Shown one piece after another: positions 11,873-27,571 of a stretch of DNA of 64,000 bases; position 1 is the stretch's first letter, and each line of letters opens with the position of its first letter. The notes under the pieces are model-generated. The model was not told where the DNA came from and searched no databases. It saw only the letters and a program-made list of their open reading frames with translations. This DNA comes from a virus (taxonomy: Duplodnaviria > Caudoviricetes). A program made the position numbers and the translations under genes. The DNA is taken from IMG/VR virus record IMGVR_UViG_3300027608_000010. One strand, given 5' to 3'.

Positions 11873-12800
11873 TGTAGCAGATTTAGATTGCATTTACCTA
11901 AGCTATGATGAACCACAAAAAGAAGAATTCTGGTTAAAAATTAAAAACATGGTGCCTTGGGCACGTAGAGTAGACGGTGTCAAGGGCAGTGACGCCGCTC
12001 ATAAAGCCGCCGCGGAAGCAAGTGATACTGAACGTTTCATATTGATTGACGGTGACAACATGCCCAACATGGAGTTCTTTAACTTAGAGTTAGACTTCAC
12101 TGACAAGCACGAAGATTACAAAAAAGCACAATATCGTTGGAGAGCAGTTAATGCTATCAACGGATTGCGCTACGGCAATGGCGGTATGAGTTCATGGACA
12201 AAAGAATATGTGATGAACATGCGTACACATGAAGCAAGTGATGGCAATGATACACATACGATTGACTTTTGTTTAGATTACAGCAACAGTTTATATTGGA
12301 GTATGTACGATTGCTACTCAACAACACACCCTAACTATACACCTTTTCAAGCATGGCGTGCTGGATTTCGTGAAGGCGTTAAGATGTGTCTAGTCAATGG
12401 TAAAAAGCCAGACATTGATGATTTTACACGTAATGTACCTGGACGTAACTTTAACAACTTAACTATATGGCATAATGTTGGATTAGATGTAGAGAACGGT
12501 GATTGGGCAATATATGGTGCAAGATACGGCACCTATATGACAATGTTAGAACATTGGAATTCAAAAGATGTTCAATGGTTTGATAATCTTAGTAAACTAT
12601 GGGAACATATAAAAGATGTAAATCCTAGACAAAATGCTGAGAGCATTGGTGAACATTTAAGAGATAAACTAGGACTACCAATATGTACAATGAGTGCTGA
12701 ACAAAGCAAATTCTTTAAGCGTCATTATAATAGTGACAAACACAACCTAGGTCCTCTAGTACGTGAGATAGATGTAATACGAAAAATAGAAGGTTGGTAA
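11853..12800 (+). CDS. Glycosyltransferase-like protein (GT-A fold)
   Basis: 'LDCIYLSYDEP...RVDGVKG...AHKAAA...FILIDGD' with a DxD-like motif. Confidence 0.55.
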   Translation: MSSNLIDVADLDCIYLSYDEPQKEEFWLKIKNMVPWARRVDGVKGSDAAHKAAAEASDTERFILIDGDNMPNMEFFNLELDFTDKHEDYKKAQYRWRAVNAINGLRYGNGGMSSWTKEYVMNMRTHEASDGNDTHTIDFCLDYSNSLYWSMYDCYSTTHPNYTPFQAWRAGFREGVKMCLVNGKKPDIDDFTRNVPGRNFNNLTIWHNVGLDVENGDWAIYGARYGTYMTMLEHWNSKDVQWFDNLSKLWEHIKDVNPRQNAESIGEHLRDKLGLPICTMSAEQSKFFKRHYNSDKHNLGPLVREIDVIRKIEGW

Positions 12801-12803
12801 ACA

Positions 12804-14216
12804 ATGTCAGATTTTAATAATCATATCAAGATAGTAAAAGAGAAACTAGATACAGTTAGTCCTAGTTTTTGTGTGGCTAAATGGAAACAAGTTACAATGC
12901 ACTTACAGAACGGACATACACATAGTTGTCATCATCCGTCAACACACTTAGTACCGTTAGATGAAATTGCTTCAAACCCCACAGCACTACACAATACTAA
13001 TTATAAAAAATTACAAAGAAAATTGATGATAGAGGGTGAAAGACCCAGTGAATGTGATTATTGTTGGAAAGTAGAAGATCAAACCACTGATAGTTATAGT
13101 GACAGGGTTTATAAAAGTTCAGATCAATGGGCATTACCTTATGTAGATGATATTGTTAGCAAGCCTTGGGATGATAATGTAGATCCTAGTTATGTTGAAG
13201 TTAGTTTTGGTAATACATGTAATTTTAAATGTAGTTACTGTGCCCCTCATATTAGTAGTCAATGGATGGAAGAAATTGAAAGATATGGTCCATATCCTAC
13301 TAGCGGTAAATTCAATAATTTAGAATGGATCAAATTACAACAGATGATGCCTATTCCAAATAGAGATGAAAATCCCTATGTTGAAGCATTTTGGAAATGG
13401 TGGCCTACTATGTATAAGAGTTTGCAACATTTTAGAATCACCGGTGGCGAACCCTTATTAAACAAAAACACTTTCAAAGTTTTAGACTATGTTATTGACA
13501 ATCCAAATGCAAATTTAGAATTATCAATTAATACAAATCTAAATCCTCCGGATGATATATTTGATAGATTTATTGAAAAACTTAATATCATTATCAGTGA
13601 AAAGAAATTAAAAGAATTGAAGCTATTTACTAGTGCTGAAGCACATGGTAAGCAAGCTGAATATATTCGTTTTGGTATGAATTATGATACTTGGTTAACT
13701 AATTTACATAGATTATACAAAGAAGTCCCGGGTATACAAATTACTATTATGAGTACATACAATATATTGAGTATCCCAAGTTATGGTAAGTTTCTAAATG
13801 ATATATTAGAAATTAAACGAACTTACGGTGAAGTAGTTAACAAGCGTAAGAATCCCAATCCAATGATATTAGATATACCTTACTTACGATATCCAGAACA
13901 TCAATCAATATTTTTGATGGAAGCGTCAATGGTTGATATGATTTTTGACCAAGTAACTTTCATGTATAGAAATTTGCAAAATAAAGATTGGATGGGAACA
14001 TCTAATGATGGATTCTATGAGCATGAAGCGGAAAAATTAAAACGTATATATGAGATGGGTCTACACTCAGTCACTAATAAAAATGAATATGTAGATAACA
14101 ATCGTAAAGACTTTATTAAATTTGTTGATGAGCATGATTTGCGCCGCGGAACAAATTTCTTAGAAACTTTCCCTGAAATGAAAAACTTTTATAATAATTG
14201 TAAAAACCTATTATGA
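12804..14216 (+). CDS. Radical SAM enzyme with extra N-terminal Cys/His cluster
   Basis: CxxxCxxC (TCNFKCSYC), 'ITGGEPLL', and N-terminal C..K...SCHH...CDYCW. Confidence 0.85.
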   Translation: MSDFNNHIKIVKEKLDTVSPSFCVAKWKQVTMHLQNGHTHSCHHPSTHLVPLDEIASNPTALHNTNYKKLQRKLMIEGERPSECDYCWKVEDQTTDSYSDRVYKSSDQWALPYVDDIVSKPWDDNVDPSYVEVSFGNTCNFKCSYCAPHISSQWMEEIERYGPYPTSGKFNNLEWIKLQQMMPIPNRDENPYVEAFWKWWPTMYKSLQHFRITGGEPLLNKNTFKVLDYVIDNPNANLELSINTNLNPPDDIFDRFIEKLNIIISEKKLKELKLFTSAEAHGKQAEYIRFGMNYDTWLTNLHRLYKEVPGIQITIMSTYNILSIPSYGKFLNDILEIKRTYGEVVNKRKNPNPMILDIPYLRYPEHQSIFLMEASMVDMIFDQVTFMYRNLQNKDWMGTSNDGFYEHEAEKLKRIYEMGLHSVTNKNEYVDNNRKDFIKFVDEHDLRRGTNFLETFPEMKNFYNNCKNLL

Positions 14217-14644
14217 AATTTATAGCGCATCGCGGGAATTTATTAGGTCCTGATATTGAACATGAAAATACTACTAATTATATACAACATGCAATTAACA
14301 AAGGATATGATGTAGAAGTAGATGTATGGTATATAGATGGTAAACTTCTATTAGGGCATAATGCCCCCATGCATGATACTAATTTATCTTTTTTGCAACG
14401 CCCTGCAATATGGGCACATGCTAAAAATTTACCAGCGTTAGAGTACTTACTAAATAACAATGTTCATTGTTTTTGGCATGAAAATGATGAACGGACGTTG
14501 ACTAGTCAACACTATATTTGGACATACCCTGATAAAGAAATAGTAGAAAATAGTGTTTTAGTCGTGTTAACCAAACATTTAAATTTAATAGATAATAATA
14601 TTTACGCAGTATGTGGGGATTACGTTGAAATTTGGAAATCCTAA
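14213..14644 (+). CDS. Short GDPD/PLC-like phosphodiesterase-fold protein
   Basis: 'FIAHRGN...EN...GYDVEVDVW...LGH' is the GDPD N-terminal motif. Confidence 0.65.
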   Translation: MKFIAHRGNLLGPDIEHENTTNYIQHAINKGYDVEVDVWYIDGKLLLGHNAPMHDTNLSFLQRPAIWAHAKNLPALEYLLNNNVHCFWHENDERTLTSQHYIWTYPDKEIVENSVLVVLTKHLNLIDNNIYAVCGDYVEIWKS

Positions 14645-15380
14645 GATTGCACTATGTTTTAGTGGTCAACCAAGAACCTGGCGAAAATGCTTAGAGTCTT
14701 GGAAATTGCACAATGTATTTACCGATAATGTAGATGTATTTTGTCATATTTGGGATTTTAATACAGTGCCAAACTGCGTTGCTGTTGGTAAAGATATAAA
14801 AAATCAGATATTACCTCAGGACGAAATTAATGAGTTACTTGCAATACTTAAGCCAAAAAAATATTTGATAGAACCAGTGAGAACTTTTACACCTATCAAA
14901 GAATCTCAACCTATTACTTTTTCTAATTTCTTAAGCCAATTTTATGGCATTATGGCAAGTGCTAGATTAAAACGAGAATATGAAATTGAAAATATGATGC
15001 AATATGATATTGTTATCCGAATGAGGTATGATGCTTTTTTTACTGATTCAATTTTCCCTAATCAACAAGTTCATCTACCGCAAGATAACACAATGTATTG
15101 CCATCATCTGGCATGGAATCATCTTTTAAATCGAGGTAGAATTGGTGATATATTTTGGTATGCTGACTCACAAACCTATGATATTATTGGTGATTATTAT
15201 TTAAATTTAAATTCAGTAGAACTAAAATTTGTTAAAGATTTCAATGAACATGAAATATTTTTTCATTATATTAAAAAAAATAATATTCAATTGAATATTA
15301 ATAATTGGGATATTAAATTGTTTCGTGAATCGTCAGAACTAGCTTTTTCTAAGGACAAAAATGGATTTGAGACCTGGTAA
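14613..15380 (+). CDS. Glycan-modifying / GT-like protein (CxSGQxR family)
   Basis: 'KIALCFSGQPR...FCHIW...YDIVIRMRYD...DIFWYADS'. Start uncertain (GTG 14613 or TTG 14625). Confidence 0.45.
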   Translation: MGITLKFGNPKIALCFSGQPRTWRKCLESWKLHNVFTDNVDVFCHIWDFNTVPNCVAVGKDIKNQILPQDEINELLAILKPKKYLIEPVRTFTPIKESQPITFSNFLSQFYGIMASARLKREYEIENMMQYDIVIRMRYDAFFTDSIFPNQQVHLPQDNTMYCHHLAWNHLLNRGRIGDIFWYADSQTYDIIGDYYLNLNSVELKFVKDFNEHEIFFHYIKKNNIQLNINNWDIKLFRESSELAFSKDKNGFETW

Positions 15381-16098
15381 AATTGCAATCTGTATTAGCG
15401 GGATGCTTAGGACAGGTATCAAAGCATATCCCTGTTTTAAACATTTTTTCAAAGATTTAAATGCAGATGTGTTCTTCCATACATGGGGTTTAGATAACGA
15501 GACATTAGATACTGTCAATAACTTATACGAACCAATAGGCTATATAAATCAACAACCATTCGAAACCATTTCAATGGGATCATTTGGTAATATGTTTTAC
15601 AGTATTATGATGGCTAATGAATTGAAAAAGAAATACGAAATAAAAAATAATTTTCGATATGATTTAGTTATAAAAACTAGGTTTGACTTAATTTTTCCTG
15701 ACACCAATATATTTGCTAATAACAAAATTAGCCCTAGAACCATTTATAGTTCAGGGGGAGATAATGGAATCAATCATACTGATTATGAACATCACGGGAT
15801 TGCTGATTTGATTTTTTGGGGTGATAGTGAATCTATGGATATTGCCACTAACACTTTTATGTATTATAAGCACACAGCATTGCCAAAGAATCAACTGTTG
15901 ATTTCAGGCATTCAATTTGATCCTAAAGCTATATTTTTAAGTCCAGGCAATCTGATTTATAATACATGTATCAACCAAAATATACACTTAGTTAAATTTG
16001 CATCATGGTTAGGGGAAGTACCTTGGCGCGATGACGTAGACCATTTAGATCCCTTTAGGGATTATGCTTTAATAAGAGAAAGATACCGGCAAATATGA
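15361..16098 (+). CDS. Glycan-modifying / GT-like protein, paralog of 14613
   Basis: 'KIAICISGMLR...FFHTW...YDLVIKTRFD...DLIFWGDS'. Confidence 0.45.
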   Translation: MDLRPGKIAICISGMLRTGIKAYPCFKHFFKDLNADVFFHTWGLDNETLDTVNNLYEPIGYINQQPFETISMGSFGNMFYSIMMANELKKKYEIKNNFRYDLVIKTRFDLIFPDTNIFANNKISPRTIYSSGGDNGINHTDYEHHGIADLIFWGDSESMDIATNTFMYYKHTALPKNQLLISGIQFDPKAIFLSPGNLIYNTCINQNIHLVKFASWLGEVPWRDDVDHLDPFRDYALIRERYRQI

Positions 16099-16895
16099 GA
16101 AAAATAGTAGTAGTAGGAGACAGCTGGACATATGGTAGCGAGATTAAAGATCCAGCGTTACCCAACACAATCAATGATTGGGATGCAGAAAATGATTCAT
16201 ACAGAATTCCTAAAATTTGGCCAACTAAGTTGGGAAACTTATTGGGGACTTCCGATGTAATTAATCTAAGTTATCCTGCAGCCAGTAATGACCGTAGTGT
16301 TAGACTTTTAGTTGGGTGGTTGACACAAGAATATCTAAGTAAAAACAAACCTACCGATGAATTGTTTGTTGTAGTAGGATTAACTAGTCCAGAAAGAAAA
16401 GATTTTTTCTATATAGATGAAAAGATAAGTAATTGGATTACTATATGGCCAATGTGGACACATGATTATATGCAAGAACCACTGCGTAGATTTGGACGAC
16501 TGTATGCCGAACATTTTTGGAATATAGAAGAATCAACACATAGATATCTGCAACAAATTTTCTATTTACAAACATTATTCAAACATTATAACATTAAATT
16601 CTTATTCTTTCAAGCATTTTATCAAAGACAAGACTTGCATATTAAACAATGGACAGATGATCCCTATTCCAGACACTACCAAAGTCAGCCTGACAAAATG
16701 ATATGGGATCTAATTGATGATAAAACGTTTATGCATAAGAACGATAAGATACATAGTTTTCATAACTATATTATAAAGAATGATCCTGACCCTGAAAAGA
16801 AATCAGTAATCCTAAATATGCATCCTAGTGAACTGGGACATACGATGTGGGCAGAGCATATGACAGACTATCTTAAGGAGAATAATTTATGGTAA
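16095..16895 (+). CDS. SGNH/GDSL hydrolase-like protein
   Basis: Block I 'VVGDSWTYG', block II 'ASND', C-terminal 'HPSELGH'. Confidence 0.65.
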   Translation: MRKIVVVGDSWTYGSEIKDPALPNTINDWDAENDSYRIPKIWPTKLGNLLGTSDVINLSYPAASNDRSVRLLVGWLTQEYLSKNKPTDELFVVVGLTSPERKDFFYIDEKISNWITIWPMWTHDYMQEPLRRFGRLYAEHFWNIEESTHRYLQQIFYLQTLFKHYNIKFLFFQAFYQRQDLHIKQWTDDPYSRHYQSQPDKMIWDLIDDKTFMHKNDKIHSFHNYIIKNDPDPEKKSVILNMHPSELGHTMWAEHMTDYLKENNLW

Positions 16896-17668
16896 CACAC
16901 ATTGCAACATGCGGTGATAGTTTTGGTGTAGGTACTGGATTACCTCAGGATAGATGTTTTGAAGATAGTTTTGGGGGAATTATTGCTAGTCATTTCAATC
17001 TACCTCAGAAAGTATATGCTCGGGCAGGTTGCTGTAATTTTGTCATTTATCTTCAAATTAAAAAGATAATAGAACAAATCGAAAAAGATGAAACGTATAA
17101 ACCTTTCGTATTGGTTACTACTACTTACCACGAAAGATTAATCTTTCCGTTAGATAACGGCACAATATATAAAAATCCAAACTTATCAGATGTTGAATAT
17201 AAATCATATAACCCCTATCATGATACAACACATGCTAAGGGCAGAGAATTGGCTTTTGAATCAAAAAAGAATACAAGATTAGTAGCTGAAACTATTTCAA
17301 ACATAAAACATTTTCAAGATGGAAAAGCCGATGGAATAGCAAGATTATTTGCAAAAGTAGATAAATCAAAACTTGAAGCAATCAAATCATACTATACGGA
17401 TATATTTGACACCGGTATTAAAAGTGAATATGACCAAGCATTAATTATTACAATGAGTTTTTTATTGAAAAAATTTAACATCCCCCATGTTATTATGGGT
17501 TATCCGTCATTAGAACTTACATATCTTGAAAATTTTATGCCAAATGATTGGGGATATTATACTAGATTATATCCAGACACTATGGGCAGTTCACATTGCA
17601 ATGAAGAAGGAAACAGGCTCGTAGGTGAAAATGTTATTAACTTTATTAAAGAACATCACTTGATATGA
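16889..17668 (+). CDS. SGNH/GDSL hydrolase-like protein
   Basis: 'TCGDSFGVG', 'GCCN', C-terminal 'HCNEEGN'. Confidence 0.55.
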   Translation: MVTHIATCGDSFGVGTGLPQDRCFEDSFGGIIASHFNLPQKVYARAGCCNFVIYLQIKKIIEQIEKDETYKPFVLVTTTYHERLIFPLDNGTIYKNPNLSDVEYKSYNPYHDTTHAKGRELAFESKKNTRLVAETISNIKHFQDGKADGIARLFAKVDKSKLEAIKSYYTDIFDTGIKSEYDQALIITMSFLLKKFNIPHVIMGYPSLELTYLENFMPNDWGYYTRLYPDTMGSSHCNEEGNRLVGENVINFIKEHHLI

Positions 17669-18384
17669 ATATATTGTTTGGATTATGTGGCGCGGGTAAA
17701 CGTTTTCGTGATGTAGGGTACACCATACCTAAATACATCATTGATGTTAATGGATCTCCCATGATTGAACATGCAGTAAAGACTTTAAAAATTTTGGGCG
17801 ATGTATTTTTTATTGTATTGAAAGAACACATGGATCAATACCCGCAAATTAAAGATATATTGTCACCTATGGGTACTATCATAGTTAGCGAATTTACTAC
17901 TCAAGGTGCCGCGCAAACATTGTTACTAGCCAAAGATTATATTGATTTAACTAAGCCCTTGATATCAGCTAACGGAGATCAATATTTAGATTGGGACTCT
18001 AGTTGCTTTAATTCAATGCTATGCGATTATCCTAATACTTCATATATTTTAACATACAAGGAAAATGATACTAAGTGCAGTTATATTAAAAAAAATGAAA
18101 AAGGTGATATTATTGAAGTTAGAGAGAAACAAGTTATAAGCAATGACGCAACTGTAGGAGTGTATCATTGGGCCAGTGCATCTGATTTTTTTAAGGACGC
18201 AGAAACAATGATTGCAGCAGATTATAGAGAGAACGGGGAGTATTATGTTGCGCCAGTATACAATTATTCAATAAAGCGTGGCTTGCAAGTTAAAAATTAC
18301 GAATTGTCTGATAAAGAATTTTGGCCGATAGGTACACCAAATGATTTGGAAAACTTTTTAAAAGTGATACAGCCCAATGATTAA
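17665..18384 (+). CDS. Sugar-phosphate nucleotidyltransferase (NTP_transferase family)
   Basis: 'CGAGKRF...PKYII.VNGSPMI', 'TQGAA.T', 'ANGDQ', 'EYYVAPVYN', 'IGTPNDL'. Confidence 0.75.
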   Translation: MNILFGLCGAGKRFRDVGYTIPKYIIDVNGSPMIEHAVKTLKILGDVFFIVLKEHMDQYPQIKDILSPMGTIIVSEFTTQGAAQTLLLAKDYIDLTKPLISANGDQYLDWDSSCFNSMLCDYPNTSYILTYKENDTKCSYIKKNEKGDIIEVREKQVISNDATVGVYHWASASDFFKDAETMIAADYRENGEYYVAPVYNYSIKRGLQVKNYELSDKEFWPIGTPNDLENFLKVIQPND

Positions 18385-19114
18385 AAATATATTAATAGTT
18401 ACTTGGAATCAAGATTGGCATCAATGTTCTAATATGTTAATTCCTTCTATATCTAAATTTATCCCCGGAGCTAATATTAAAATAGTTGATACTACATTTC
18501 ATACACCCTCACCTATAATCGCCCCTAGCTTTAGTAATATAACATACGAAGTATTACCTGCAATACAATTATTAGAAACACTAGAACCTTGGAAAGGCGA
18601 CAATCATAATGAAGGTTGGATGTACCAACAGATGTGTAAATTAGCAGGATACAAATTATTTGATAGTGAATTTGTAGTATTAGATTCTGAATTAGTAATA
18701 CTTAGAAAATTTGATAAATGGCCTACATATTGTAGGCTAACAGCCAGTAATACTCATTTTAATAAATTTATAGAATATGCTAGTGCTAGATTGAATATTG
18801 ATTGCGAAGGTCATTGTTTTTTAGAACCGTGTGTTCCGTATATATTAGATCCTAAGATTTTAAAAGAAATAGTTTCAACATTTGGGTCATTTGCAGAATT
18901 ATATAAATGGTTTATCACACATTCGGAGCCTAGTGAATTTATACTTTACGATTTATTTAAATATAGAAAAGACTTGCAACAAGACACTAATAACCAAAAT
19001 ATATATGAAAGCCCGGCAATACAATTTATAATAGACAATAAACCGTATGTTTTGGATAGTAGATACGATTTTGCTTTGATTAACCGTAATGCCTATATGA
19101 ATTTTGGAAAATAG
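18377..19114 (+). CDS. Hypothetical GT-like protein
   Basis: 'GWMYQQMCKL...VVLDSE' motif and glyco-locus context. Confidence 0.4.
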   Translation: MIKNILIVTWNQDWHQCSNMLIPSISKFIPGANIKIVDTTFHTPSPIIAPSFSNITYEVLPAIQLLETLEPWKGDNHNEGWMYQQMCKLAGYKLFDSEFVVLDSELVILRKFDKWPTYCRLTASNTHFNKFIEYASARLNIDCEGHCFLEPCVPYILDPKILKEIVSTFGSFAELYKWFITHSEPSEFILYDLFKYRKDLQQDTNNQNIYESPAIQFIIDNKPYVLDSRYDFALINRNAYMNFGK

Positions 19115-19116
19115 AT

Positions 19117-19443
19117 ATGAAAATAGCACACATAGAACAATTCACAAAGGGTTGGTTTGTTGGTAACTTTGATCCTAGCTTGTTGAAAGCTGATTTTGAA
19201 GTAGGACTACATCAACACAAAGCCGGAGAATTCCACCAAGATCATTTTCATAAATTAGGTACAGAGATTAATGTTATGATAGAAGGTCACTTACTATTAA
19301 ACGGAAATGAGTTCGGCCCGGGTGAAATTTTTGTATTAGAGCCATACGAAATTAGTCAAGTAGAGTATCTAACAGATGTTAAATTAATCGTAGTTAGAGA
19401 TATTAGCGATCCTAATGACAAATATGAAGTAGAGATAAAATGA
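19117..19443 (+). CDS. Cupin-domain protein (RmlC-like)
   Basis: 108 aa, 'H..HFHKLGTEIN...EG' metal-binding cupin motif. Confidence 0.75.
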   Translation: MKIAHIEQFTKGWFVGNFDPSLLKADFEVGLHQHKAGEFHQDHFHKLGTEINVMIEGHLLLNGNEFGPGEIFVLEPYEISQVEYLTDVKLIVVRDISDPNDKYEVEIK

Positions 19444-20558
19444 ACATTTATATCAATGAGATACCCACAGACCATATCAAAGTAACATATCAGGTTACCT
19501 CTACTAAAAATCTATCTATTGCGGCAGAGGCAATTGCTATAGGACAGAGTATCGGCAACCCATCTGTACGAAATGAGTTTGAATCACCTGAATTAGTTAG
19601 TAATCATTCTGCTAAAATATTAGGAGATAAAAATGAATTGTCTAAAATAACTGATGGTGAAATAATTATTGGTTATCCGTTAGTAAATATTAATTGGGAT
19701 GAAGATGGTGTATCACAACTACTTTGTATGATTCAAGGTGGACAGCTTGACATAGACCATATAGTTAAGTGTAGAGTAACTGACATTGATATAACTAATT
19801 TGCCTATGCTTAAGCCAAAGTTTGGTCTTTCAGGTATAAGAGAACTAACTAAAACATATGATCGACCTTTATTAGGATGTATATTAAAACCTAAGACAGG
19901 ACTACGCCCTAAAGAGCTATCATTATTAGTTAAGGAAATGATTGCTGGCGGGGCTAACATTATTAAAGAAGATGAAATTTTAGGATCACCCTCATACTGC
20001 AATTTAGAATCACGCTTACCCTACATTAGAGATATTATACAAGATAAGAATGTAGTTTATCTTACTTGCATTAACAGCAATCCAGACAAACTTATAGAAA
20101 AGTCTAGTACTGTTAGGATGCTAGGAGTTAATGGTATACATATTAATATCTGGAGTGGTTTAGGTAGTTATGCCGCTGTTCGAAATAAAAATTATCCACT
20201 AGTCATGCATTACCAAAAGAGTGGTGATAAGATTTTAACCAATATACATAATCCATATGGTATCGATTGGATAGTTCTATGCAAGTTAGCAATCATTAGT
20301 GGTATCGATACTATACATGCCGGAATGTGGGGCGGATACTTAAGTGATGATCCTGTATACCTTAAAAATATTATGGACACATTAACTAGTCACAATGTAG
20401 TCCCTGCATTGAGTTGTGGAATGAATGCAACATTAATACCACAAGTTACCGCTAAGTTTGGTGTTGATTACTTAGCGAATGTAGGCGGGGCGTGTCATAC
20501 ACATCCTGATGGAATTAAGGCTGCTGTACGGGAATTACGAAATGCCATCGACAGATAA
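19440..20558 (+). CDS. RuBisCO-like protein (form IV RLP)
   Basis: 'RPLLGCILKPKTGL', 'GGANIIKEDE', 'HAG', 'PALSCG', 'VGGACHTHPDG'. Loop-6 Lys is replaced (GGYL) and the Glu60 position is Gln (GQSIG). Confidence 0.9.
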   Translation: MNIYINEIPTDHIKVTYQVTSTKNLSIAAEAIAIGQSIGNPSVRNEFESPELVSNHSAKILGDKNELSKITDGEIIIGYPLVNINWDEDGVSQLLCMIQGGQLDIDHIVKCRVTDIDITNLPMLKPKFGLSGIRELTKTYDRPLLGCILKPKTGLRPKELSLLVKEMIAGGANIIKEDEILGSPSYCNLESRLPYIRDIIQDKNVVYLTCINSNPDKLIEKSSTVRMLGVNGIHINIWSGLGSYAAVRNKNYPLVMHYQKSGDKILTNIHNPYGIDWIVLCKLAIISGIDTIHAGMWGGYLSDDPVYLKNIMDTLTSHNVVPALSCGMNATLIPQVTAKFGVDYLANVGGACHTHPDGIKAAVRELRNAIDR

Positions 20559-21495
20559 CATCACAATACTTAAAGGCGGTTCTTTAAATTCGACATGCCT
20601 ACATGAAAACTCTATGGGTAAGTTTGTTAGAAAAAAAATAGCTACAGATAAGAATAGAGAATATGGATATGTTCGATGGTATAGTCAGCTAAAGAAATTA
20701 CAACGTTATAATAGTATGTTTCCTGGATTTGTTCCAAAGGTCTTGGATGCAGGAGTTAATGATAATGAAGCATACTTTGATATTGAATATATTGATGGTA
20801 TAGATATTAAGACTTTGTTTAAGAATAATCTAATAGATGATGTAGAAAAGTTGAATCAATCATTATGGGAAGCATTTGACTTGATACATCATAGGTCATA
20901 TAGTCCACTGCGTAGTTCTCTTATGCTTTACTTTATGGAAGAAGTAGAACAGAAACTACATGATGCACTAGAGTTCCCAGAGTTCAGAGACTTTTACATG
21001 ATGGATGTATATGAGTACAGGGGTGAAACATTTAGGGGCATGATCGGACAGCACGATAAGTTCAAAAAACTATTCAATAGAGATATTACTAGTGAAGGCT
21101 ATGTCCACGGCAATCCTACACTTGAAAACATACTATACAATACTGATACAAACAAAATAACCTTTATTGATTTATATGAAGAAGGGATAGTTGATAGTAG
21201 ATATTCAGATTATAGTCAGGTGTTACAATGCAGTAATAGTCACTATGGATTGATAAATGATTCAATAGTAACAATTAATGATAATCAGATTATGTCCGAT
21301 TATATTATACCAGATAAATTAGCAGAGTTCAATTCGTTGTTTATAGAAAATATTGAAGACAACACATCGTTGGTAATGCTATTTGAGGCTACCCAATATT
21401 TTAGAATGTTACCGTTTAAGTGTCATAGTGGTAACATATCTCACGCTAAGTTTTTTTATGGGTATGGATGCTATCTAGTAAATAAATTACTATGA
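20542..21495 (+). CDS. APH/choline-kinase-like phosphotransferase-fold protein
   Basis: 'FVRKK', 'VHGNPTLENIL', 'FID'. ATG 20542 is in frame with ORF-track start 20509. Confidence 0.6.
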   Translation: MPSTDNITILKGGSLNSTCLHENSMGKFVRKKIATDKNREYGYVRWYSQLKKLQRYNSMFPGFVPKVLDAGVNDNEAYFDIEYIDGIDIKTLFKNNLIDDVEKLNQSLWEAFDLIHHRSYSPLRSSLMLYFMEEVEQKLHDALEFPEFRDFYMMDVYEYRGETFRGMIGQHDKFKKLFNRDITSEGYVHGNPTLENILYNTDTNKITFIDLYEEGIVDSRYSDYSQVLQCSNSHYGLINDSIVTINDNQIMSDYIIPDKLAEFNSLFIENIEDNTSLVMLFEATQYFRMLPFKCHSGNISHAKFFYGYGCYLVNKLL

Positions 21496-22583
21496 TATGT
21501 AACATAAAAACATCACTCCCGATTGAATTTGAAATCCGTAAAGCTGTCAACGTATTATCGTTATCCGAAATTACTAGTAAAAGAAAAATTGTTATAATTG
21601 ACAGAAATGTTTATGAGTTATATTCCGATCAACTATTTGATGACGTAGATTCGTTGTTATTTATAGACTCGTCCGAAGAAAACAAAGATTGGACAACTGC
21701 GGAAATGGTACTAACCTTCTTAGAAGAAAATAAAATATTACGTAGGTCAGAACCAGTAATAGCAATAGGTGGCGGAGTCTTATTAGACTTAGTAGGATTT
21801 TGCTGTAGCATATATCGTAGGGGTATTCCTTACATTCGTATACCCACGACATTACTAGCAATCGTTGACGCTAGTGTGGGAGCAAAAACAAGCGTAAATC
21901 ATTTTAATAGAAGAAATCGTTTGGGTAGTTTTTATCCACCACAACTAACATTGATTGACACTACGTTTATCAAAACACAATCTGATAGAGAAATATCTAA
22001 TGGCTTTGCAGAGATATTAAAATTAGCAATCGTGTTAGATAGTAAGTTGTTTGAATTAATAGAAACAGATTCAGATAAGTTACTACAGTGCAAATTTCAA
22101 GATACCGCACATTCAACTGAAATAATTGAACGGGCAATTGCAGGTATGACCAAAGAACTTAATGATAATTTGTGGGAGCAAGAATTAGAAAGACCAGTAG
22201 ATTTTGGTCATTCATTCAGTCCCCTAATTGAAATGAAGAACGTACCTAATCTACTTCACGGAGAAGCAGTTATACTAGATTGTTTATTAAGTTGCTGTAT
22301 ATCAACTGTTAGAAACCTTCTCTCAGCGGATGAGTTAACTAGAATATTTAATTTGACTAGAAAAATGAATCTACCTGTAACTCATACTGATTTTTTAAAT
22401 AGCACATTATTGTTAGAAGGCTTGTCTGATGTAATGAAGCACAGAAACGGAAATCAATACTTACCTATACCAACATCTATTGGACAGTGTAAAATCATCA
22501 ATGACCTAACACCTGCTGAATTAGAATCAGCAATACAACTAATGAGATTATATGAAAAAGACCATATTGATTACTGGCACTAG
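21492..22583 (+). CDS. Sedoheptulose-7-phosphate cyclase, EEVS-type (DHQS superfamily)
   Basis: 'GGGVLLD...YRRGIPY.RIPTT..AIVDASVG.K..VN...NRLG..YPP', 'NLWE..LERPVDFGHSFSP', 'LLHGEAV'. Confidence 0.8.
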   Translation: MICNIKTSLPIEFEIRKAVNVLSLSEITSKRKIVIIDRNVYELYSDQLFDDVDSLLFIDSSEENKDWTTAEMVLTFLEENKILRRSEPVIAIGGGVLLDLVGFCCSIYRRGIPYIRIPTTLLAIVDASVGAKTSVNHFNRRNRLGSFYPPQLTLIDTTFIKTQSDREISNGFAEILKLAIVLDSKLFELIETDSDKLLQCKFQDTAHSTEIIERAIAGMTKELNDNLWEQELERPVDFGHSFSPLIEMKNVPNLLHGEAVILDCLLSCCISTVRNLLSADELTRIFNLTRKMNLPVTHTDFLNSTLLLEGLSDVMKHRNGNQYLPIPTSIGQCKIINDLTPAELESAIQLMRLYEKDHIDYWH

Positions 22584-23217
22584 TAGTGGTCTAGGTTTAG
22601 CTCTGGCAAAACACTATAGCAAGAATCACAATGTTATTGGATTAAGTAGAACCAATGTAGAAATGCCTAATTATACTCATCATATTTGTGATATTAGTAA
22701 CTTTGATAACGTATCTAAAACATTTTATTCCATCGGTGATAGTAAAATTGATTTACTGATTAATAATGCAGGGGTATTTGATATGGACAAGTTTACTCAA
22801 ACATCTATCCATACTATTGACCGTGTTATTAATACTAACCTGACAGGTGCCATGTATGTAACCAGATCAGCATTAGAGTCAATGCCAGATCATAGTAAAA
22901 TAGTCTTTATCAATAGTGTAGCAGGATTAGAAGAATTAGAGAATCAAAGTATATATTGTGCTAGTAAGTATGGTCTAACTGCATTTGCTGGAATACTTGG
23001 TAAAGAACTAAGAGACAGACATATCAAAGTCTCTAGCATACACCCCGGTGGGATTAATACCCCATTATGGGATAATACCCCATACCCGTTAGGAGATGCT
23101 ACTAATGCAATGGATCCAAATTCTATAATAGAAATTATCGACCTAATTGTAAACAGTAAATATGATATTGATTACAAAACTGTCAAAATGTTTCCGTCTA
23201 TTGAATGGCATAACTGA
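22552..23217 (+). CDS. Short-chain dehydrogenase/reductase (SDR)
   Basis: 'TGTSSGLG', 'NNAG', catalytic 'YCASK'. Confidence 0.9.
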   Translation: MKKTILITGTSSGLGLALAKHYSKNHNVIGLSRTNVEMPNYTHHICDISNFDNVSKTFYSIGDSKIDLLINNAGVFDMDKFTQTSIHTIDRVINTNLTGAMYVTRSALESMPDHSKIVFINSVAGLEELENQSIYCASKYGLTAFAGILGKELRDRHIKVSSIHPGGINTPLWDNTPYPLGDATNAMDPNSIIEIIDLIVNSKYDIDYKTVKMFPSIEWHN

Positions 23218-23227
23218 AAGATAAACT

Positions 23228-23344
23228 ATGAGAAACTTATTTCAAACACTATATTATAATACAATTGGAAAATTAGTTAGAGAATACAAGTATAGAAAAC
23301 GATTAAAAGAGTTACGTAAACGAGATCCATTTATCTACAAATGA
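23228..23344 (+). CDS. Small basic 38-aa protein (not in ORF track)
   Basis: MRNLFQTLYYNTIGKLVREYKYRKRLKELRKRDPFIYK*; its stop overlaps the ATG of the carbamoyltransferase (ATGA). Confidence 0.6.
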   Translation: MRNLFQTLYYNTIGKLVREYKYRKRLKELRKRDPFIYK

Positions 23345-24864
23345 ATATACTAGGAATCAGTGCCGGCTTTCATGACGCTGCCATCTCAGTTGTTAACACC
23401 CAAGGTGATATACTGTTTGCCGGCCACAGCGAACGCTACAGCAAGATAAAAAACGATGCACACATCAGCGCAGGCTTGATTGAAGAAATCTTCGGATTTG
23501 ATATTGATACCATTGCCTACTATGAACGACCCTGGGCCAAACAACTGCGTAGGCTTTACAGTGGCGAAGGTGTGCAATGGGGAGCCCTGACTGTAGAGCA
23601 ATGCTTACAAAGAGAACTCGGCGATCATCTAAAAATTTCCAGAGAACAAAACATCACGGATCCTCTGCATCCTGCTACAAATCTAAGAACCAGATCCTTC
23701 AATCACCATCTTAGTCATGCAGCCGGTGGATTTCAAACAAGTCCGTATGATCGTGCTACAGTTGTTGTGATTGATGCCATAGGTGAGTGGGATACGATAT
23801 CGATCTGGGGAGCCGAGTATGACAAGAGAGGCCGAGCACAGTATAAGAGATTGTGGACACAGCGCTATCCTCACAGCCTAGGTTTGTTTTATAGTGCAAT
23901 TACTAAGCGTGTGGGCCTACACCCATTAGACGAAGAATACATTACTATGGGCATGGCTGCTTATGGTGATGACCATTACCATGATCTTATGGAGGCAGTA
24001 TTGATCAGCGATGCAGACTCCATAGAATTCAAACAAAACTTGCACATAGGCGTTAGTGATAAATTCATGGACGGACTGGATCACATGGATATCGCTGCCA
24101 GTGCTCAACGGTTGTTACAACGACTAATAGGTAATGTCATGCGTAGAGCCAGGGATTTTAAGTGGTCAACCAATCTTGTGTATCAGGGTGGTGTTGCACT
24201 CAACTGTCTGGCCAATAGACAACTAGGAAGATTTTTTGAAAATATTTGGATTATGCCTTGCCCCGGTGATGCTGGCAGTAGTCTTGGCGCTGCTGCTCTT
24301 GCTCATGGTGGCAGGATTAATTGGACTACTGCTTTCTTGGGTCATGCTATACCCGGTAACTATCCCGTTAATGATGCTCTTAATCATCTCATTACTAATA
24401 GTATTGTTGGTGTAGCAAGTGGGCGTGCAGAATTTGGCCCAAGAGCATTGGGAAATAGAAGCCTACTTGCAGACCCAAGAGGAAAAGAAATAAAGGACCA
24501 AGTAAATGCAATCAAACGCAGACAAAAGTTTCGACCCTTTGCCCCTGTTATACTGGCTGAACTGGCTGATGACTATTTTGATATCAAGCCCGGCTGGCAT
24601 ACTCACAGTTATATGCAGTCAGTCGCTAGTTGCCGCGATCCTAATCTTTACCCTGCTATATGTCATGTTGATGGCACCAGTAGAGTACAAACGGTGGCAA
24701 AGGATGGATCAGGTATAAGACAGTTGTTAGAAGCCTGGTATGCACAAACAGGTTGCCCAATGTTATTGAACACTAGTCTTAACATACGCGGTGAACCCAT
24801 GGTAAATGATAGAACTGATGCTGATAGATTTCAGAATTTATACAATGTACAGGTCTTTTCGTGA
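23341..24864 (+). CDS. O-carbamoyltransferase (NodU/CmcH family)
   Basis: 'ILGIS..FHDAA', 'HHLSHAA', 'VIDAIGE', 'GGVALN', 'EFGPRALGNRSLLADPR', 'RPFAP', 'LLNTSLN'. Confidence 0.92.
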   Translation: MNILGISAGFHDAAISVVNTQGDILFAGHSERYSKIKNDAHISAGLIEEIFGFDIDTIAYYERPWAKQLRRLYSGEGVQWGALTVEQCLQRELGDHLKISREQNITDPLHPATNLRTRSFNHHLSHAAGGFQTSPYDRATVVVIDAIGEWDTISIWGAEYDKRGRAQYKRLWTQRYPHSLGLFYSAITKRVGLHPLDEEYITMGMAAYGDDHYHDLMEAVLISDADSIEFKQNLHIGVSDKFMDGLDHMDIAASAQRLLQRLIGNVMRRARDFKWSTNLVYQGGVALNCLANRQLGRFFENIWIMPCPGDAGSSLGAAALAHGGRINWTTAFLGHAIPGNYPVNDALNHLITNSIVGVASGRAEFGPRALGNRSLLADPRGKEIKDQVNAIKRRQKFRPFAPVILAELADDYFDIKPGWHTHSYMQSVASCRDPNLYPAICHVDGTSRVQTVAKDGSGIRQLLEAWYAQTGCPMLLNTSLNIRGEPMVNDRTDADRFQNLYNVQVFS

Positions 24865-27389
24865 TAGATATAGCGCATAGAAAAAAACTTTGGGATCAAG
24901 GATATTGGGAAATACCTGAAGGGTTAGATATAACTAACTTTGACTTCTCATGGAGACCAGAATCACATGATAGACCTTATATACATCAGTTTGGTACCCA
25001 GCATCAAAAGACAGGTGGACCAAGATTTGTAATTCCTGAAAATGAGGGTATCAAATATCAAAATTATCAACATGCAATAAGATTGCCTACTCCTGATATC
25101 AGATGTTGGCGACCATTGGTATCAAACATAGATTTTGATTATAGCTGGCACCCAGATGATACAGAACCTCCGTTCATTTATGTATTTGGTAACCAATGGC
25201 ATGACTCAGTTGAAATGCCGACTATACAATATAAAGTTTCAGGTGCAACTGAAAAGAAGTATGTTAATACAATAAAAGCAAAATTATTACCTGATAAAAC
25301 TAATTGGATCATACCTGATGATATAGAGGATAACTTTGACTATAGCTGGGTTCCTAGCCCCAAAGAACCATCTTTCATTTGGGAATTTGGAACACAATGG
25401 CAATCAACCGGTGGACCGAGTTATGTTGCACACGGCGCAACTTATACAAAATACTCTAAAGAATTGAATGCTACTAAGAAAAGTAATAATGAAGATAGAT
25501 GCTGGAGACCATTATTTCCCAATATAGACTTTGACTATAGTTGGCACCCCGATAAAAATGATCCGCCATACATATATGTGTTTGGCAATCAATGGTATGA
25601 TAGTTTAACAATGCCAACATTGTTATATAGGGTGAAAGGTGCAACTGAAAAGAAATATATGACTGACATAAAGGTCACGCTAACTCCTAATAAATCTTTG
25701 TGGTCTATACCAGATGACATAGAAGATGATTTTGATTATAGTTGGCTACCACACCCTGATGAACCGGCATATATATGGCAGTTCGGCACACAATGGCAGA
25801 AGAACGGTGGACCAAAGTATACTGCAATCAATGCAACTGTAGTTAAACATTCTGATTTGTTTAAAGCAACCAAAAAGAATATTAAAGAAAATCGTTTATA
25901 CAGACCATTAGTGTCAAATATTGAATTTGACTATAGCTGGCACCCGGATGAAGATGAACCACCATACATATATGTATTCGGCAATCAATGGTATGATAGT
26001 TTAAAAATGCCGACATTGGTATACCGAGTTAAAAGAGCTACTGAGAAGAAATATATGACTGACATAAAGGTCACGCTAACTCCTAATAAATCTTTGTGGT
26101 CTATACCAGATGACATAGAAGATGATTTTGATTATAGTTGGCTACCAGACCCCATAGAGCCACCATTTATTTGGCAGTTCGGCACACAATGGCAGAGGAA
26201 CGGTGGACCAAAGTATAATGCACTAGGAGCAAACATAATTAAACATTCTGATTTGTTCAAGGCAACTAAAAAATCTAATATTCGTAATTGGCGTTTTATT
26301 GAATCTATTAATAAAGAAACATTTGACTTTAGTTGGCACCCAGATGAAACAGAAGAAAACTTTAACCACATTGTTGGTACTAAGTTTCATACACCTGAGA
26401 TAATGCCTGCAATTATGTATCGTGGACACAATGATGCAAGAACTAACAAATATACTACAGAGATATGTGCTGATTTGACGATAGATAAGATTGTATATGA
26501 GGATAGCATATTTGATGCATGTATGGAACATAAATTCTCTACTGCTTATGCACATTTTGTAAAGAATACTAATAGCAACTACACACATGATTTGATTAAG
26601 GCTGATAATATCAGCGTACATTTATTTCCAAGCGAGGCGATTATTCCTAAGTCAGCAGTTACATTCTTCTATGATAAGATTACTGACTATGACCATGTTA
26701 TTGAACATGAATTTGAAGAAACAGTTGAGCCACTAGATGTTATATTCTTTAGTAACGGTGAAGCATGTGCTGATGACAATTATAATCATTTATTGTCACT
26801 TAATTTACCTAATAGAATTGTGCGTATTGACAGAGTGAAAGGTCGTGTTGCAAGTCAACATGCGGCAGCAAATGCTAGTAATACCCCCTGGTACTTCTTG
26901 GTAAATGCTAAGTTAAAAGTAAGAGATGACTTTGACTTCAATTGGCAACCAAACATATACAAATCACGTAGACACTATATATTCAGGGCAACTAATCCTG
27001 TAAATGGATTAGTGTATGGTCACCAAGCTATTGTCGCAAACAACAAGAAACTTACTTTGAACACTGTAGTTCGTGGGTTAGACTTTACAATGGACAGTGC
27101 AACAGAAGTAGTTGACATTAACTCCGGAGTAGCAATGTACAATACTAGTGCGTGGGATACTTGGAGAACAGCATTTAGAGAAATGATTAAACTATGTTGC
27201 AACACAGACCAAGATTCAATTGACAGAGGCGCAGCCTGGTTGAATAAGGGTTACGGAGACTTTGGTGAATACAGCAAGTTGGGTGCAAAAGATGCAGTTG
27301 ATTATTATAACAGTGTTGATGGTAATATGGAAAAACTTATGCTAAGTTATGATTGGGAATGGTTGTATCAGTATTACCAAAATAGTTGA
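24861..27389 (+). CDS. Repeat protein (132-aa units) fused to C-terminal GT-like domain
   Basis: Repeated 'FDYSWHPD..EPPYIYVFGNQW...FDYSW.P...IWQFGTQW'. The C-terminus resembles ORF 11853. Confidence 0.65.
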   Translation: MIDIAHRKKLWDQGYWEIPEGLDITNFDFSWRPESHDRPYIHQFGTQHQKTGGPRFVIPENEGIKYQNYQHAIRLPTPDIRCWRPLVSNIDFDYSWHPDDTEPPFIYVFGNQWHDSVEMPTIQYKVSGATEKKYVNTIKAKLLPDKTNWIIPDDIEDNFDYSWVPSPKEPSFIWEFGTQWQSTGGPSYVAHGATYTKYSKELNATKKSNNEDRCWRPLFPNIDFDYSWHPDKNDPPYIYVFGNQWYDSLTMPTLLYRVKGATEKKYMTDIKVTLTPNKSLWSIPDDIEDDFDYSWLPHPDEPAYIWQFGTQWQKNGGPKYTAINATVVKHSDLFKATKKNIKENRLYRPLVSNIEFDYSWHPDEDEPPYIYVFGNQWYDSLKMPTLVYRVKRATEKKYMTDIKVTLTPNKSLWSIPDDIEDDFDYSWLPDPIEPPFIWQFGTQWQRNGGPKYNALGANIIKHSDLFKATKKSNIRNWRFIESINKETFDFSWHPDETEENFNHIVGTKFHTPEIMPAIMYRGHNDARTNKYTTEICADLTIDKIVYEDSIFDACMEHKFSTAYAHFVKNTNSNYTHDLIKADNISVHLFPSEAIIPKSAVTFFYDKITDYDHVIEHEFEETVEPLDVIFFSNGEACADDNYNHLLSLNLPNRIVRIDRVKGRVASQHAAANASNTPWYFLVNAKLKVRDDFDFNWQPNIYKSRRHYIFRATNPVNGLVYGHQAIVANNKKLTLNTVVRGLDFTMDSATEVVDINSGVAMYNTSAWDTWRTAFREMIKLCCNTDQDSIDRGAAWLNKGYGDFGEYSKLGAKDAVDYYNSVDGNMEKLMLSYDWEWLYQYYQNS
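25104..26291 (+). repeat. Three in-frame 396-bp (132-aa) tandem repeat units
   Basis: Equivalent codons at 25104, 25500 and 25896. 25650-25751 is identical to 26046-26147. Confidence 0.85.
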
Positions 27390-27424
27390 CCTTAACTAAA
27401 TACTATGATACGATAAGGACTGTC

Positions 27425-27571
27425 ATGGAACTAGTACGATACAGAGATGCGGGTATGAATACATATACTTGGTTTTATGTAAATGACAAAAAACATTGTA
27501 TTAGTCCTTTTTTTGATAGTGAGCAAGAAGCCAAAGATTGGTTTGAAAAAGTTTTTGATGGTGATGAATGA
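27425..27571 (+). CDS. Small hypothetical protein
   Basis: AAGGA RBS then ATG 27425; sigma70-like TTGACC-17-TACGAT at 27386-27414. Confidence 0.55.
   Translation: MELVRYRDAGMNTYTWFYVNDKKHCISPFFDSEQEAKDWFEKVFDGDE

Follow-up and report, generated by a model that had tools for sequence, protein, structure and literature searches.

C7 cyclitols are familiar as core structures in antibiotics, antidiabetic drugs and sunscreens, and are not known as building blocks of glycans. Here we analyse a block of seven genes, at positions 17665–23217 of a 64,000-nucleotide stretch of viral DNA (Caudoviricetes; IMG/VR record IMGVR_UViG_3300027608_000010), in which a cyclase of the EEVS type (EEVS, the synthase of 2-epi-5-epi-valiolone) is encoded together with a kinase-like protein, a short-chain dehydrogenase/reductase (SDR), a nucleotidyltransferase, a RuBisCO-like protein (RLP), a small cupin-like protein and a DUF6492 protein. 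The whole stretch is called the window below, all positions follow its 64-kb numbering, and L-numbers denote loci fetched for comparison. On balance, we favour the view that two conserved modules for glycan precursors have been fused in these seven genes, and that the module built around the cyclase makes a nucleoside diphosphate (NDP)-cyclitol for the decoration of glycans.

Among described systems, the closest is the branch of validamycin and acarbose biosynthesis that runs through GDP-valienol (ValA/AcbC, ValC/AcbM/AcbU, AcbN and ValB/AcbR; PMC9200736). The phage locus shares with it the start from sedoheptulose-7-phosphate (S7P), the EEVS-type cyclase and the general logic of cyclising, reducing, phosphorylating and nucleotidylating the substrate. 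However, the cyclase alone is homologous. The phage kinase has an APH fold and is not ROK/glucokinase-like, and tblastn (E ≤0.01) gave no match to the kinase, reductase or nucleotidyltransferase in the ∼8-kb flanks of the validamycin-type loci L089 and L090 or of the Actinoplanes locus L058, except for a weak SDR match in L058. The kinship with validamycin and acarbose biosynthesis that an earlier note on this DNA had drawn thus stops at the cyclase, no other gene being orthologous. Nor was any epimerase, dehydratase, aminotransferase or pseudoglycosyltransferase found among the scanned open reading frames (ORFs) of the cluster, so that the phage cluster lacks the set of ValB/AcbR, ValC/AcbM, AcbL/AcbO or ValD/ValK, aminotransferase and VldE/AcbS that marks a C7N-aminocyclitol cluster. 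The setting, a phage or a lipopolysaccharide (LPS)-type glycan locus, differs as well from the secondary-metabolite clusters of actinomycetes.

The NDP-heptose pathways also run from S7P, by way of GmhA, HldE or HddA, GmhB and HddC. They resemble the phage locus in this starting point, in combining a kinase with a nucleotidyltransferase, in their LPS or capsule setting and in the HAD phosphatase-like domain that some relatives of the phage genes carry on the nucleotidyltransferase. They differ in opening with the GmhA isomerase instead of a carbocycle-forming cyclase and in the fold of the kinase, and the product of the phage genes would be a carbasugar. AmgK/MurU, NahK and methylthioribose kinase offer a parallel for the kinase-like protein, with an APH-type fold encoded beside a sugar-phosphate nucleotidyltransferase, and MurU is itself a weak NCBIfam match of the phage nucleotidyltransferase. 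In contrast to these kinases, to which it has no detectable sequence relationship, the phage protein has HGN in place of HGD, and its substrate would be a cyclitol. Finally, the phage RLP shares its fold, the carbamyl-Lys/Asp/Glu site and K175 with the form IV RLPs (the MtnW enolase, the Rhodospirillum rubrum isomerase and the OiaX-type decarboxylases). Unlike the named members it is shorter (372 aa), has its own Q/K/Y set of residues, and stands in a triad with a nucleotidyltransferase and the small cupin-like protein in phage-like glycan loci; we know of no described RLP with such a context.

Layout of the gene block

The ORF listing places seven co-directional and mostly overlapping ORFs within 17665–23217, all on the plus strand:

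17665–18384, plus strand: A-type sugar-phosphate nucleotidyltransferase (PF00483, 33.1 bits against a cutoff of 21.2)
18377–19114, plus strand: DUF6492 protein, a lineage-specific insert (PF20102, 24.4 bits)
19117–19443, plus strand: 108-aa cupin-like protein (orf108), middle gene of the RLP triad (phrog_24762, 2.3e-31)
19440–20558, plus strand: form IV RLP, 372 aa (RuBisCO_large, PF00016, 1.8e-32)
20542–21495 (longest ORF from 20509), plus strand: APH-fold kinase-like protein (weak Pfam match to APH, E 0.0035, under the cutoff)
21492–22583, plus strand: EEVS-type cyclase (DHQ_synthase, PF01761, 2.5e-36, and PF24621, 2.9e-22, for the N- and C-terminal domains)
22552–23217, plus strand: classical SDR, presumed cyclitol ketoreductase (adh_short, PF00106, 3.4e-36)

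The junctions are, in order, an 8-nt overlap, a 2-nt gap and overlaps of 4, 50, 4 and 32 nt, and the 50-nt overlap between the RLP and kinase genes shrinks to 17 nt if the suggested kinase start at 20542 is used. Upstream, the ORF at 16889–17668 overlaps the nucleotidyltransferase gene by 4 nt, and the co-directional run around the seven genes extends over about 9636–28326. The close packing described in the earlier note is therefore found again at identical coordinates. Its family calls also stand for the nucleotidyltransferase, the RLP, the cyclase (as a member of the 3-dehydroquinate synthase (DHQS) family) and the SDR, from Pfam, and for the kinase, from its fold; the supposed cupin has no Pfam match. 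The seventh gene, which the note had left unnamed, is that of the DUF6492 protein. For the kinase, cyclase, SDR and nucleotidyltransferase the arrangement is beyond chance, as they are syntenic in dozens of independent loci.

An EEVS-type cyclase

The earlier note had read the cyclase as EEVS-type rather than DHQS from the motifs NRLG, NLWE, VDFGHSFSP and HGEAV, all of which are found in the alignment. In a search of PDB sequences, the best solved relative is ValA (4p53; 284 bits, 1.4e-83); the DDGS 5tpr gives 188 bits (3.2e-54), DHQS at most 161 bits (3.7e-46 or weaker) and DOIS 82 bits. The Glu of AEILK, the His of GHSF and the His of HGEAV align with ValA, and the two-domain DHQS-like fold with its NAD and metal sites is present.

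We take Leu267 and Asp281 of ValA, which are Glu and Ala in DDGS, to be the fingerprint sites that separate EEVS from DDGS; the residue identities reportedly go back to Kean (2014) and Osborn (2017). The phage cyclase has in common with ValA the Leu in KEL-NDNLWE and the Asp in VDFGH, where DDGS has Glu and Ala, and the Glu/Ala state is seen at both sites in 5tpr and in the DDGS orthologue of Aetokthonos. The existence of two sites that distinguish EEVS from DDGS is described (PMC4426668). In the alignments L223, D237 and P244 of the phage enzyme agree with ValA and not with DDGS or DHQS, the Pro standing where DHQS has its second active-site His and the Asp replacing the DHQS Asn; all three residues are invariant in 22 metagenomic relatives.

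The same assignment is reached from the cyclase tree, which was built from 105–107 sequences and rooted on DHQS, the latter forming an outgroup with 100% support. The phage cyclase belongs to a derived group whose 41 rows are, but for one, cyclases encoded next to a kinase-like gene, from phages and from cells. An EEVS-like radiation that also holds the ValA orthologue of L089 (664 bits to 4p53) and an Actinoplanes enzyme encloses this group. The quick tree placed DDGS tentatively beside a Chloroflexi group, and DDGS falls outside the cassette-linked clade. A tree constrained to hold all EEVS-like rows together, apart from DDGS, had the higher likelihood (p-AU 0.80, 19.5 log units better). With ValA as best match, the Leu/Asp fingerprint and a position inside the EEVS-like radiation, the enzyme is, as far as its sequence can tell, an EEVS-type S7P cyclase, and the phylogeny that the earlier note had proposed as a check gives no grouping with DHQS.

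That the gene instead encodes an ordinary DHQS, carried as an auxiliary shikimate-pathway gene, is extremely improbable. Its relatives are auto-annotated as '3-dehydroquinate synthase' and the aroB model TIGR01357 does give 217 bits, but this falls short of that model's cutoff of 305, and every DHQS matches it far less well than ValA does. The replacement of the DHQS Asn and second His and the outgroup position of the DHQS sequences speak against it too, as does the finding of no further shikimate genes nearby among the scanned cluster ORFs.

Aetokthonos hydrillicola carries both an EEVS-like gene (L046/L124) and a DDGS gene, the latter split over two contig ends (L134, L136) with a 7-residue overlap. 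For the tree the two halves were joined at this overlap, since separate rows gave unstable positions.

A kinase–cyclase–SDR module in phages and cells

A scan of IMG/VR with the cyclase gave 31 viral loci, to which the window proteins were then mapped by tblastn, and a scan of 185,579 species genomes gave a further 80 loci. In 46 of these, about 24 viral and 22 from bacteria or archaea, the cyclase gene has a kinase-like gene immediately upstream. About 20 of the 31 viral loci show the gene order GT-A-like ORF, nucleotidyltransferase, kinase-like protein, cyclase and SDR, and the kinase–cyclase–SDR core is found in viral loci wherever the contig extends far enough. An SDR follows the cyclase in nearly all viral and 13 cellular loci. 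The nucleotidyltransferase is present in all 24 viral kinase–cyclase loci and in most cellular ones with sufficient flank, whereas a match to it was found nearby in only 10 of the 58 cyclase loci without the kinase. Within the 80-locus set, none of the actinomycete-type EEVS loci has the kinase-like gene.

The cellular kinase–cyclase loci come from Polynucleobacter, several Myxococcota, Fibrobacteria, Desulfobulbaceae and Balneolaceae, and also from Actinomarina, single cells of Prochlorococcus, Saccharibacteria and archaeal metagenome-assembled genomes. In the cultured Polynucleobacter sp. 80A-SIGWE the cassette is flanked on one side by ManC, a GT2 glycosyltransferase (GT) and a Wzz-like gene, and on the other by a GT9 heptosyltransferase-like gene and a GDP-mannose dehydratase, gene content which places it inside an LPS-type locus. 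A Prochlorococcus single-cell genome has an aldo-keto reductase (L075:5496–6575) after the cyclase, in the usual place of the SDR; such non-orthologous replacement argues that the reduction step is needed. In the viral locus L027 the cassette lies among 4,6-dehydratase-type epimerases, a DegT aminotransferase and a 2-oxoglutarate oxygenase. The synteny comparison across phages and bacterial polysaccharide loci, another check named in the earlier note, thus shows the kinase-like protein, cyclase, reductase and nucleotidyltransferase to co-occur widely in both, and this wide co-occurrence, together with the LPS-type locus, fits an activated cyclitol for use in glycans.

As a separate observation, the L027 contig also encodes a protein with a match to the DruA (Druantia) domain (L027:1470–2582; 1.1e-09).

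The RLP triad as a second module

A separate scan with the RLP gave nine viral loci, among them L115, which is on one and the same contig with L001. Among the viral loci of the cyclase scan, L001–L003 alone share the RLP and orf108 with the window, and in the window, L001/L115, L002, L003 and L116 six genes are contiguous and overlapping. The remaining loci, L117–L123, have the nucleotidyltransferase (38–48% identical to that of the window), orf108 and the RLP together, adjacent to one another in L117–L122, and in none of them was a kinase-like gene, a cyclase or an SDR found. The same triad, again without a cyclase, is present in L137–L141, which were found through exact RLP homologues and in which it is followed by an ORF of ∼150 aa and a DUF7796-like gene of the WavE-like GT-A type. 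The triad is positioned near 6001–7100 or 7001–8188 in each of L117–L123 and L137–L141, and orf108 is always the gene between the nucleotidyltransferase and the RLP (L116–L122, L137–L141). Loci L117–L123 often also carry homologues of orf14213 and of the GT-A-like, DUF6071 and radical SAM genes that lie upstream of the block in the window (see below), and in L117 the next recognisable gene past the triad is a tail sheath gene. Taken together, at least ten other contigs, phage-like and from fresh water, have the triad and no cyclase, and an ORF of ∼150 aa and a DUF7796/WavE-like GT-A gene usually stand before or after it. The RLP itself is common, with more than 100 metagenomic proteins at least 48% identical to that of the window.

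Conversely, besides the fused loci L001–L003, about 21 viral and 22 cellular kinase–cyclase loci have no adjacent RLP or cupin; in L035 there is a weak RLP match (27%), ∼6 kb distant and on the opposite strand. The DUF6492 gene is absent between the nucleotidyltransferase and orf108 in L001, which is 97% identical to the window, and the DUF6492 family is mostly viral. The nucleotidyltransferase at 17665–18384 is the only one in the window, no second copy having been found there. It is 38–58% identical to the enzymes of the triad loci L116–L123, and only 25–26% identical to two sampled cassette-type enzymes (L027, L048), or 21–33% across the cassette loci by tblastn. The occurrence of the triad on its own, the low identity to the cassette nucleotidyltransferases and the single copy together indicate that the seven-gene block is a fusion. 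Read from these sequence comparisons, it is a kinase–cyclase–SDR trio (module B) set behind an RLP triad (module A), with the cassette's own nucleotidyltransferase lost and DUF6492 as an extra insert. The earlier note had assigned all seven genes to one pathway, and this is not supported: the triad occurs without a cyclase in two sets of loci, most cyclase cassettes lack the RLP and cupin, and DUF6492 is missing from L001. Since the triad exists without any cyclase, the RLP and cupin are not obligatory steps to a cyclitol. Module A may make a second activated sugar, and in the fused loci the RLP and cupin could also tailor the keto-cyclitol by enediolate chemistry.

The A-type nucleotidyltransferase joins the trio in three arrangements, namely the fused phage loci, the bacterial locus L041 and the viral locus L029, which makes it a credible activator of a cyclitol phosphate. 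A HAD_2 domain is fused to the N-terminus of this enzyme in L041:11073–12443 and L123:3877–5235, and the homologue at L029:2425–3795 is of the same length as the HAD-fused ORF of L041. By analogy with AcbJ and ValO, the phosphate-editing steps of the acarbose and validamycin pathways (PMC9200736), the HAD_2 domain (phosphatase or beta-phosphoglucomutase-like) may provide such a step. Homologues of orf14213 lie beside an A-type nucleotidyltransferase or an RLP in L029, L041, L117–L123 and the Synechococcus phage Bellamy. In Bellamy (L112, record 162488–164711), gp206 is a nucleotidyltransferase fused to an RpiB/LacAB sugar-phosphate isomerase, gp207 is an orf108 homologue inside the sugar cluster and gp208 is a GT-A candidate like that at 14613. 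The isomerase domain thus stands where the other phages have the RLP, which hints at a sugar-phosphate isomerase role for the latter.

Features of the individual enzymes

The kinase-like protein was modelled with high confidence (pLDDT 93.6) and has the bilobal kinase fold. Among its fold matches, APH(2''), APH(4), methylthioribose kinase and the ketoamine kinases give a Foldseek E of about 2e-8 and TM-scores of 0.55–0.62; the others are homoserine kinase II and choline kinases. The family retains the beta-3 Lys, the loop Asn, preceded by an invariant Glu, and the metal-binding Asp of a downstream IDxYEE. A PDB sequence search with the protein alone gave nothing informative; with the family profile the matches, all weak, were to pseudokinase and kinase domains only, the best being JAK2 pseudokinase domains, on account of an HGN catalytic loop. 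Judged from the model, the protein likely phosphorylates its substrate.

The nucleotidyltransferase has the N-terminal GxGxR signature (LCGAGKRF). Its best solved relative is 4evw (1.2e-17), and it scores under every NCBIfam equivalog cutoff. The motifs of a classical SDR are complete (TGTSSGLG, NNAG, the Ser in NSVAG, and YCASK for YxxxK).

Aligned to a type III RuBisCO, the RLP retains the equivalents of K175, K177, K201, D203, E204, H327, S379 and G403/G404. At three positions it differs (H294 to Q, R295 to K and K334 to Y), and these replacements are invariant or nearly so in 22 family members. The catalytic set of a bona fide RuBisCO (forms I–III) is thus incomplete, and the protein is a form IV RLP; it scores far under all NCBIfam RLP cutoffs, which gives no assignment to a named RLP clade. 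With the metal/K175 set kept and the carboxylase residues gone, it is capable of enolate chemistry and is not a carboxylase. For orf108, which has no Pfam or NCBIfam match, the likeness to cupins comes from its His-rich motifs and from language-model neighbours (ranks 43 and beyond), which are a lead only.

Candidate transferases and other neighbours of the block

Several further genes of the window are related to the block by position or by their homologues:

11853–12800, plus strand: candidate DxD transferase-like protein (orf11853; DGD motif)
12804–14216, plus strand: twitch-domain radical SAM protein, heading the sub-cluster (NF033640, 7.9e-101)
14213–14644, plus strand: 143-aa protein (orf14213; phrog_34507)
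14613–15380 and 15361–16098, plus strand: paralogous GT-A-like (WavE/DUF7796-like) candidate transferases (fold matches)
16095–16895 and 27568–28326, plus strand: two DUF6071 proteins flanking the cluster (homologues with the RLP triad in other viral contigs)
23341–24864, plus strand: NodU/CmcH-type O-carbamoyltransferase, directly downstream of the SDR (Carbam_trans_C, 2.2e-48; Carbam_trans_N, 5e-35)
38042–38947: thymidylate synthase, near the sugar epimerase/dehydratase
39197–40162, plus strand: NAD-dependent sugar epimerase/dehydratase, 16 kb away from the cluster
40898–41713, minus strand: non-specific endonuclease, near the sugar epimerase/dehydratase

The GT-like enzymes that the earlier note had placed beside the block are recovered as the two GT-A-like genes. 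Their PDB fold matches are to GT-A glycosyltransferases only (GT6, GT8 and PBCV-1 A64R), and in the AlphaFold database the match is to a WavE LPS-synthesis cluster (TM-score 0.65, E 4.8e-15), TM-scores over the matches being 0.4–0.65. A PDB sequence search with the family profile was uninformative. The conserved acidic residues are in RxRxD and GxxD, with no clear DxD. Homologues lie directly upstream of the nucleotidyltransferase in about 20 cassette loci.

For orf11853, neither Pfam nor the PDB sequences gave a match, also when a profile was used. A degenerate copy of it forms the C-terminus of the 842-aa ORF at 24861–27389 (BLASTP 4e-12 between the two); the DGD is kept in orf11853 and in its homologue, the ORF after the SDR in L002 and L003, and is lost in the 842-aa protein. 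The radical SAM protein is conserved with the RLP triad in L003, L116–L119 and L122, and in L122 a carbamoyltransferase homologue comes directly after the RLP.

A proposed route to an activated cyclitol, and its alternatives

From the families and folds assigned above, together with the EEVS-type signature and the synteny, we infer the substrate, the sequence of reactions, where the phosphate sits (C1 or C7), the nucleotide, the state of the ring (saturated or dehydrated) and the acceptor, as follows. The cyclase would take S7P that the pentose-phosphate pathway of the host supplies and close it to a C7 keto-cyclitol, of which 2-epi-5-epi-valiolone is the likeliest. The SDR would reduce the ketone of this cyclitol, the APH-fold enzyme would phosphorylate the cyclitol, and a nucleotidyltransferase, in this phage lineage the A-type enzyme at 17665–18384, would give the NDP-cyclitol. 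The GT-A-like (WavE-like) neighbours might then place the unit on a glycoconjugate of the virion or of the host envelope.

Several points weigh against this route. Membership of the EEVS clade does not by itself fix the stereochemistry of the product. The catalytic Asp of HxD is replaced in the kinase-like family, the loop reading HGNxTLEN in 25 of 26 members and HGD in L043 only; the protein therefore lacks the canonical HxDxxxxN catalytic loop, and its chemistry may differ from that of a normal kinase. The model of the GT-A-like protein is of moderate confidence (pLDDT 69, pTM 0.75). Because the sole nucleotidyltransferase of the window belongs to the RLP triad, it is less certain here than for the common cassette that the cyclitol becomes NDP-activated. 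A saturated carbasugar-1-NDP, moreover, would donate poorly in glycosyl transfer. The known pseudoglycosyltransferases take the allylic GDP-valienol (PMC9200736), and neither a dehydratase nor a GT-B enzyme of the VldE/AcbS type was found among the scanned cluster ORFs. There are three possible ways around this donor problem. The cyclitol could be dehydrated after all, perhaps through enolate chemistry of the RLP and cupin in the fused loci; the transfer could be of an unusual type; or the unit could be moved as a cyclitol phosphate, by analogy with CDP-ribitol or CDP-inositol.

The last of these leads to a variant in which the donor resembles CDP-ribitol, CDP-glycerol or CDP-inositol, with the phosphate perhaps on the primary C7 hydroxyl, and in which the attachment is a phosphodiester and not pseudo-glycosidic. 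It has chemistry on its side, since a saturated carbocycle forms no oxocarbenium-like transition state while attack at phosphorus is easy, and it agrees with a core cassette that has no dehydratase, with weak NCBIfam matches of the nucleotidyltransferase to inositol-1-phosphate cytidylyltransferase (E 0.007) and IspD, and with the HAD-fused nucleotidyltransferases, which may edit phosphate positions. We nevertheless regard it as somewhat unlikely, as the nucleotidyltransferase scores best against sugar-1-phosphate enzymes (RmlA-like, GlmU-like, 4evw), the APH-fold kinases paired with such transferases (AmgK/MurU, NahK) are anomeric kinases, and the adjacent transferase candidates resemble GT-A glycosyltransferases.

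The two remaining alternatives concern how the modules relate to each other and to glycans. One is the single linear pathway of seven genes, with the RLP and cupin as obligatory steps of the epimerase or enolase type toward an NDP-carbasugar. The contiguous and overlapping arrangement of six genes in five loci (the window, L001/L115, L002, L003 and L116) favours it, the loss of the cassette-type nucleotidyltransferase from the fused loci suggests functional integration, and the RLP still has its Mg-binding KxDE residues together with K175 and one phosphate site. Enolisation beside the ketone, leading to C2 epimerisation or C5–C6 dehydration of a phosphorylated keto-cyclitol, is chemically plausible, and AcbO and AcbL carry out steps of this kind in acarbose biosynthesis (PMC9200736). 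Even so, a linear pathway is unlikely given the triads that lack the kinase, cyclase and SDR (L117–L123 and L137–L141), the many kinase–cyclase loci with neither RLP nor cupin adjacent, and a DUF6492 gene that is dispensable. The other alternative is that the C7 cyclitol, free or phosphorylated, is a small molecule (for example an inhibitor of glycosidases or trehalase, an osmolyte or the precursor of a sunscreen) that is never activated or transferred, the nucleotidyltransferase serving the RLP module only. All EEVS enzymes that have been characterised serve small-molecule pathways (PMC4426668, PMC9200736, PMC12904256), the phage has no cassette-type nucleotidyltransferase, its kinase-like protein is atypical and the neighbouring transferases are candidates only. 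Against this, linkage to a nucleotidyltransferase is far commoner for the kinase–cyclase pair than for other EEVS-like genes, the cassette is found in the Polynucleobacter LPS-type locus and in phage nucleotide-sugar clusters, the GT-A-like genes are adjacent, and no methyltransferase-oxidase, aminotransferase or pseudoglycosyltransferase partner, as is usual in known small-molecule routes, was found in the cluster of the window; we judge a small-molecule product to be quite improbable.

The fusion of two glycan-precursor modules, with module B leading to an NDP-cyclitol, therefore remains our preferred interpretation. A wider form of it can be put forward tentatively, and with more doubt: uncultured freshwater phages and many aquatic bacteria might share a four-enzyme route, unrelated to the antibiotic pathways except in its cyclase, which makes a nucleotide-activated C7 carbasugar, puts this sugar or its phosphate into virion or envelope glycans, and has been joined in this phage lineage to an undescribed RLP nucleotide-sugar module. 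If so, these glycans would contain a sugar mimic that resists cleavage by glycosidases. The presence of the cassette in phages, Polynucleobacter, Prochlorococcus single cells, Actinomarina, Saccharibacteria and archaea, and its position in LPS-type loci, suggest that the surfaces of microbes and viruses contain carbasugars that have so far stayed hidden. Phage receptor recognition could then be affected, such surfaces could withstand glycosidases and depolymerases, and the cassette could be a source of new enzymes for activated pseudo-sugars. The RLPs, for their part, gain a concrete new context, the conserved triad whose other members are a nucleotidyltransferase and the small cupin-like protein.

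Novelty, phage identity and occurrence

A DNA search with 17000–24900 against 50,697 GenBank phage records gave no match. At the protein level, the RLP had no match in the same records, and the cyclase matched only host-type aroB (∼30% identity, in contaminated or prophage records) and nothing of the EEVS type. In the searchable literature, no link was found of EEVS to phages, O-antigens or Prochlorococcus, or of RLPs to phage nucleotide-sugar genes. The window contributes a phage example of the cassette, its fusion with the RLP triad, and the occurrence of that triad on its own elsewhere.

The phage origin of the window, as stated in the earlier note, is clear from a large terminase (46452–47999), a DNA helicase (57751–59208) and virion proteins; a RecA/UvsX-like protein is also encoded. 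An identical cyclase protein is encoded on a contig of 296,737 bp, and the source is a large freshwater phage of roughly 297 kb. No genes for the supply of S7P, such as transaldolase, were found among the scanned ORFs of the 64-kb window. Rfam models detected a permuted two-piece transfer-messenger RNA (tmRNA) at 28901–29243 on the plus strand, with 112 bits for the Betaproteobacteria tmRNA model and 89 bits for the permuted tmRNA model; ARAGORN, which missed this permuted tmRNA, reported no tRNA or tmRNA in the window. The betaproteobacterial type of the tmRNA is a lead to a freshwater betaproteobacterium as the host.

Three RNA-library runs (at most three samples, from three studies) contain short contigs, mostly at least 99% identical, on genes of the block. 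These range from the upstream ORFs via the nucleotidyltransferase to the carbamoyltransferase and cover parts of the block only; they carry no information on strand or level, and uncovered bins are uninformative. As DNA carry-over is possible, they lend weak support to transcription of these genes. In DNA, the stretch was found almost whole in at least 14 freshwater or lake runs, dated from 2016 to 2025.

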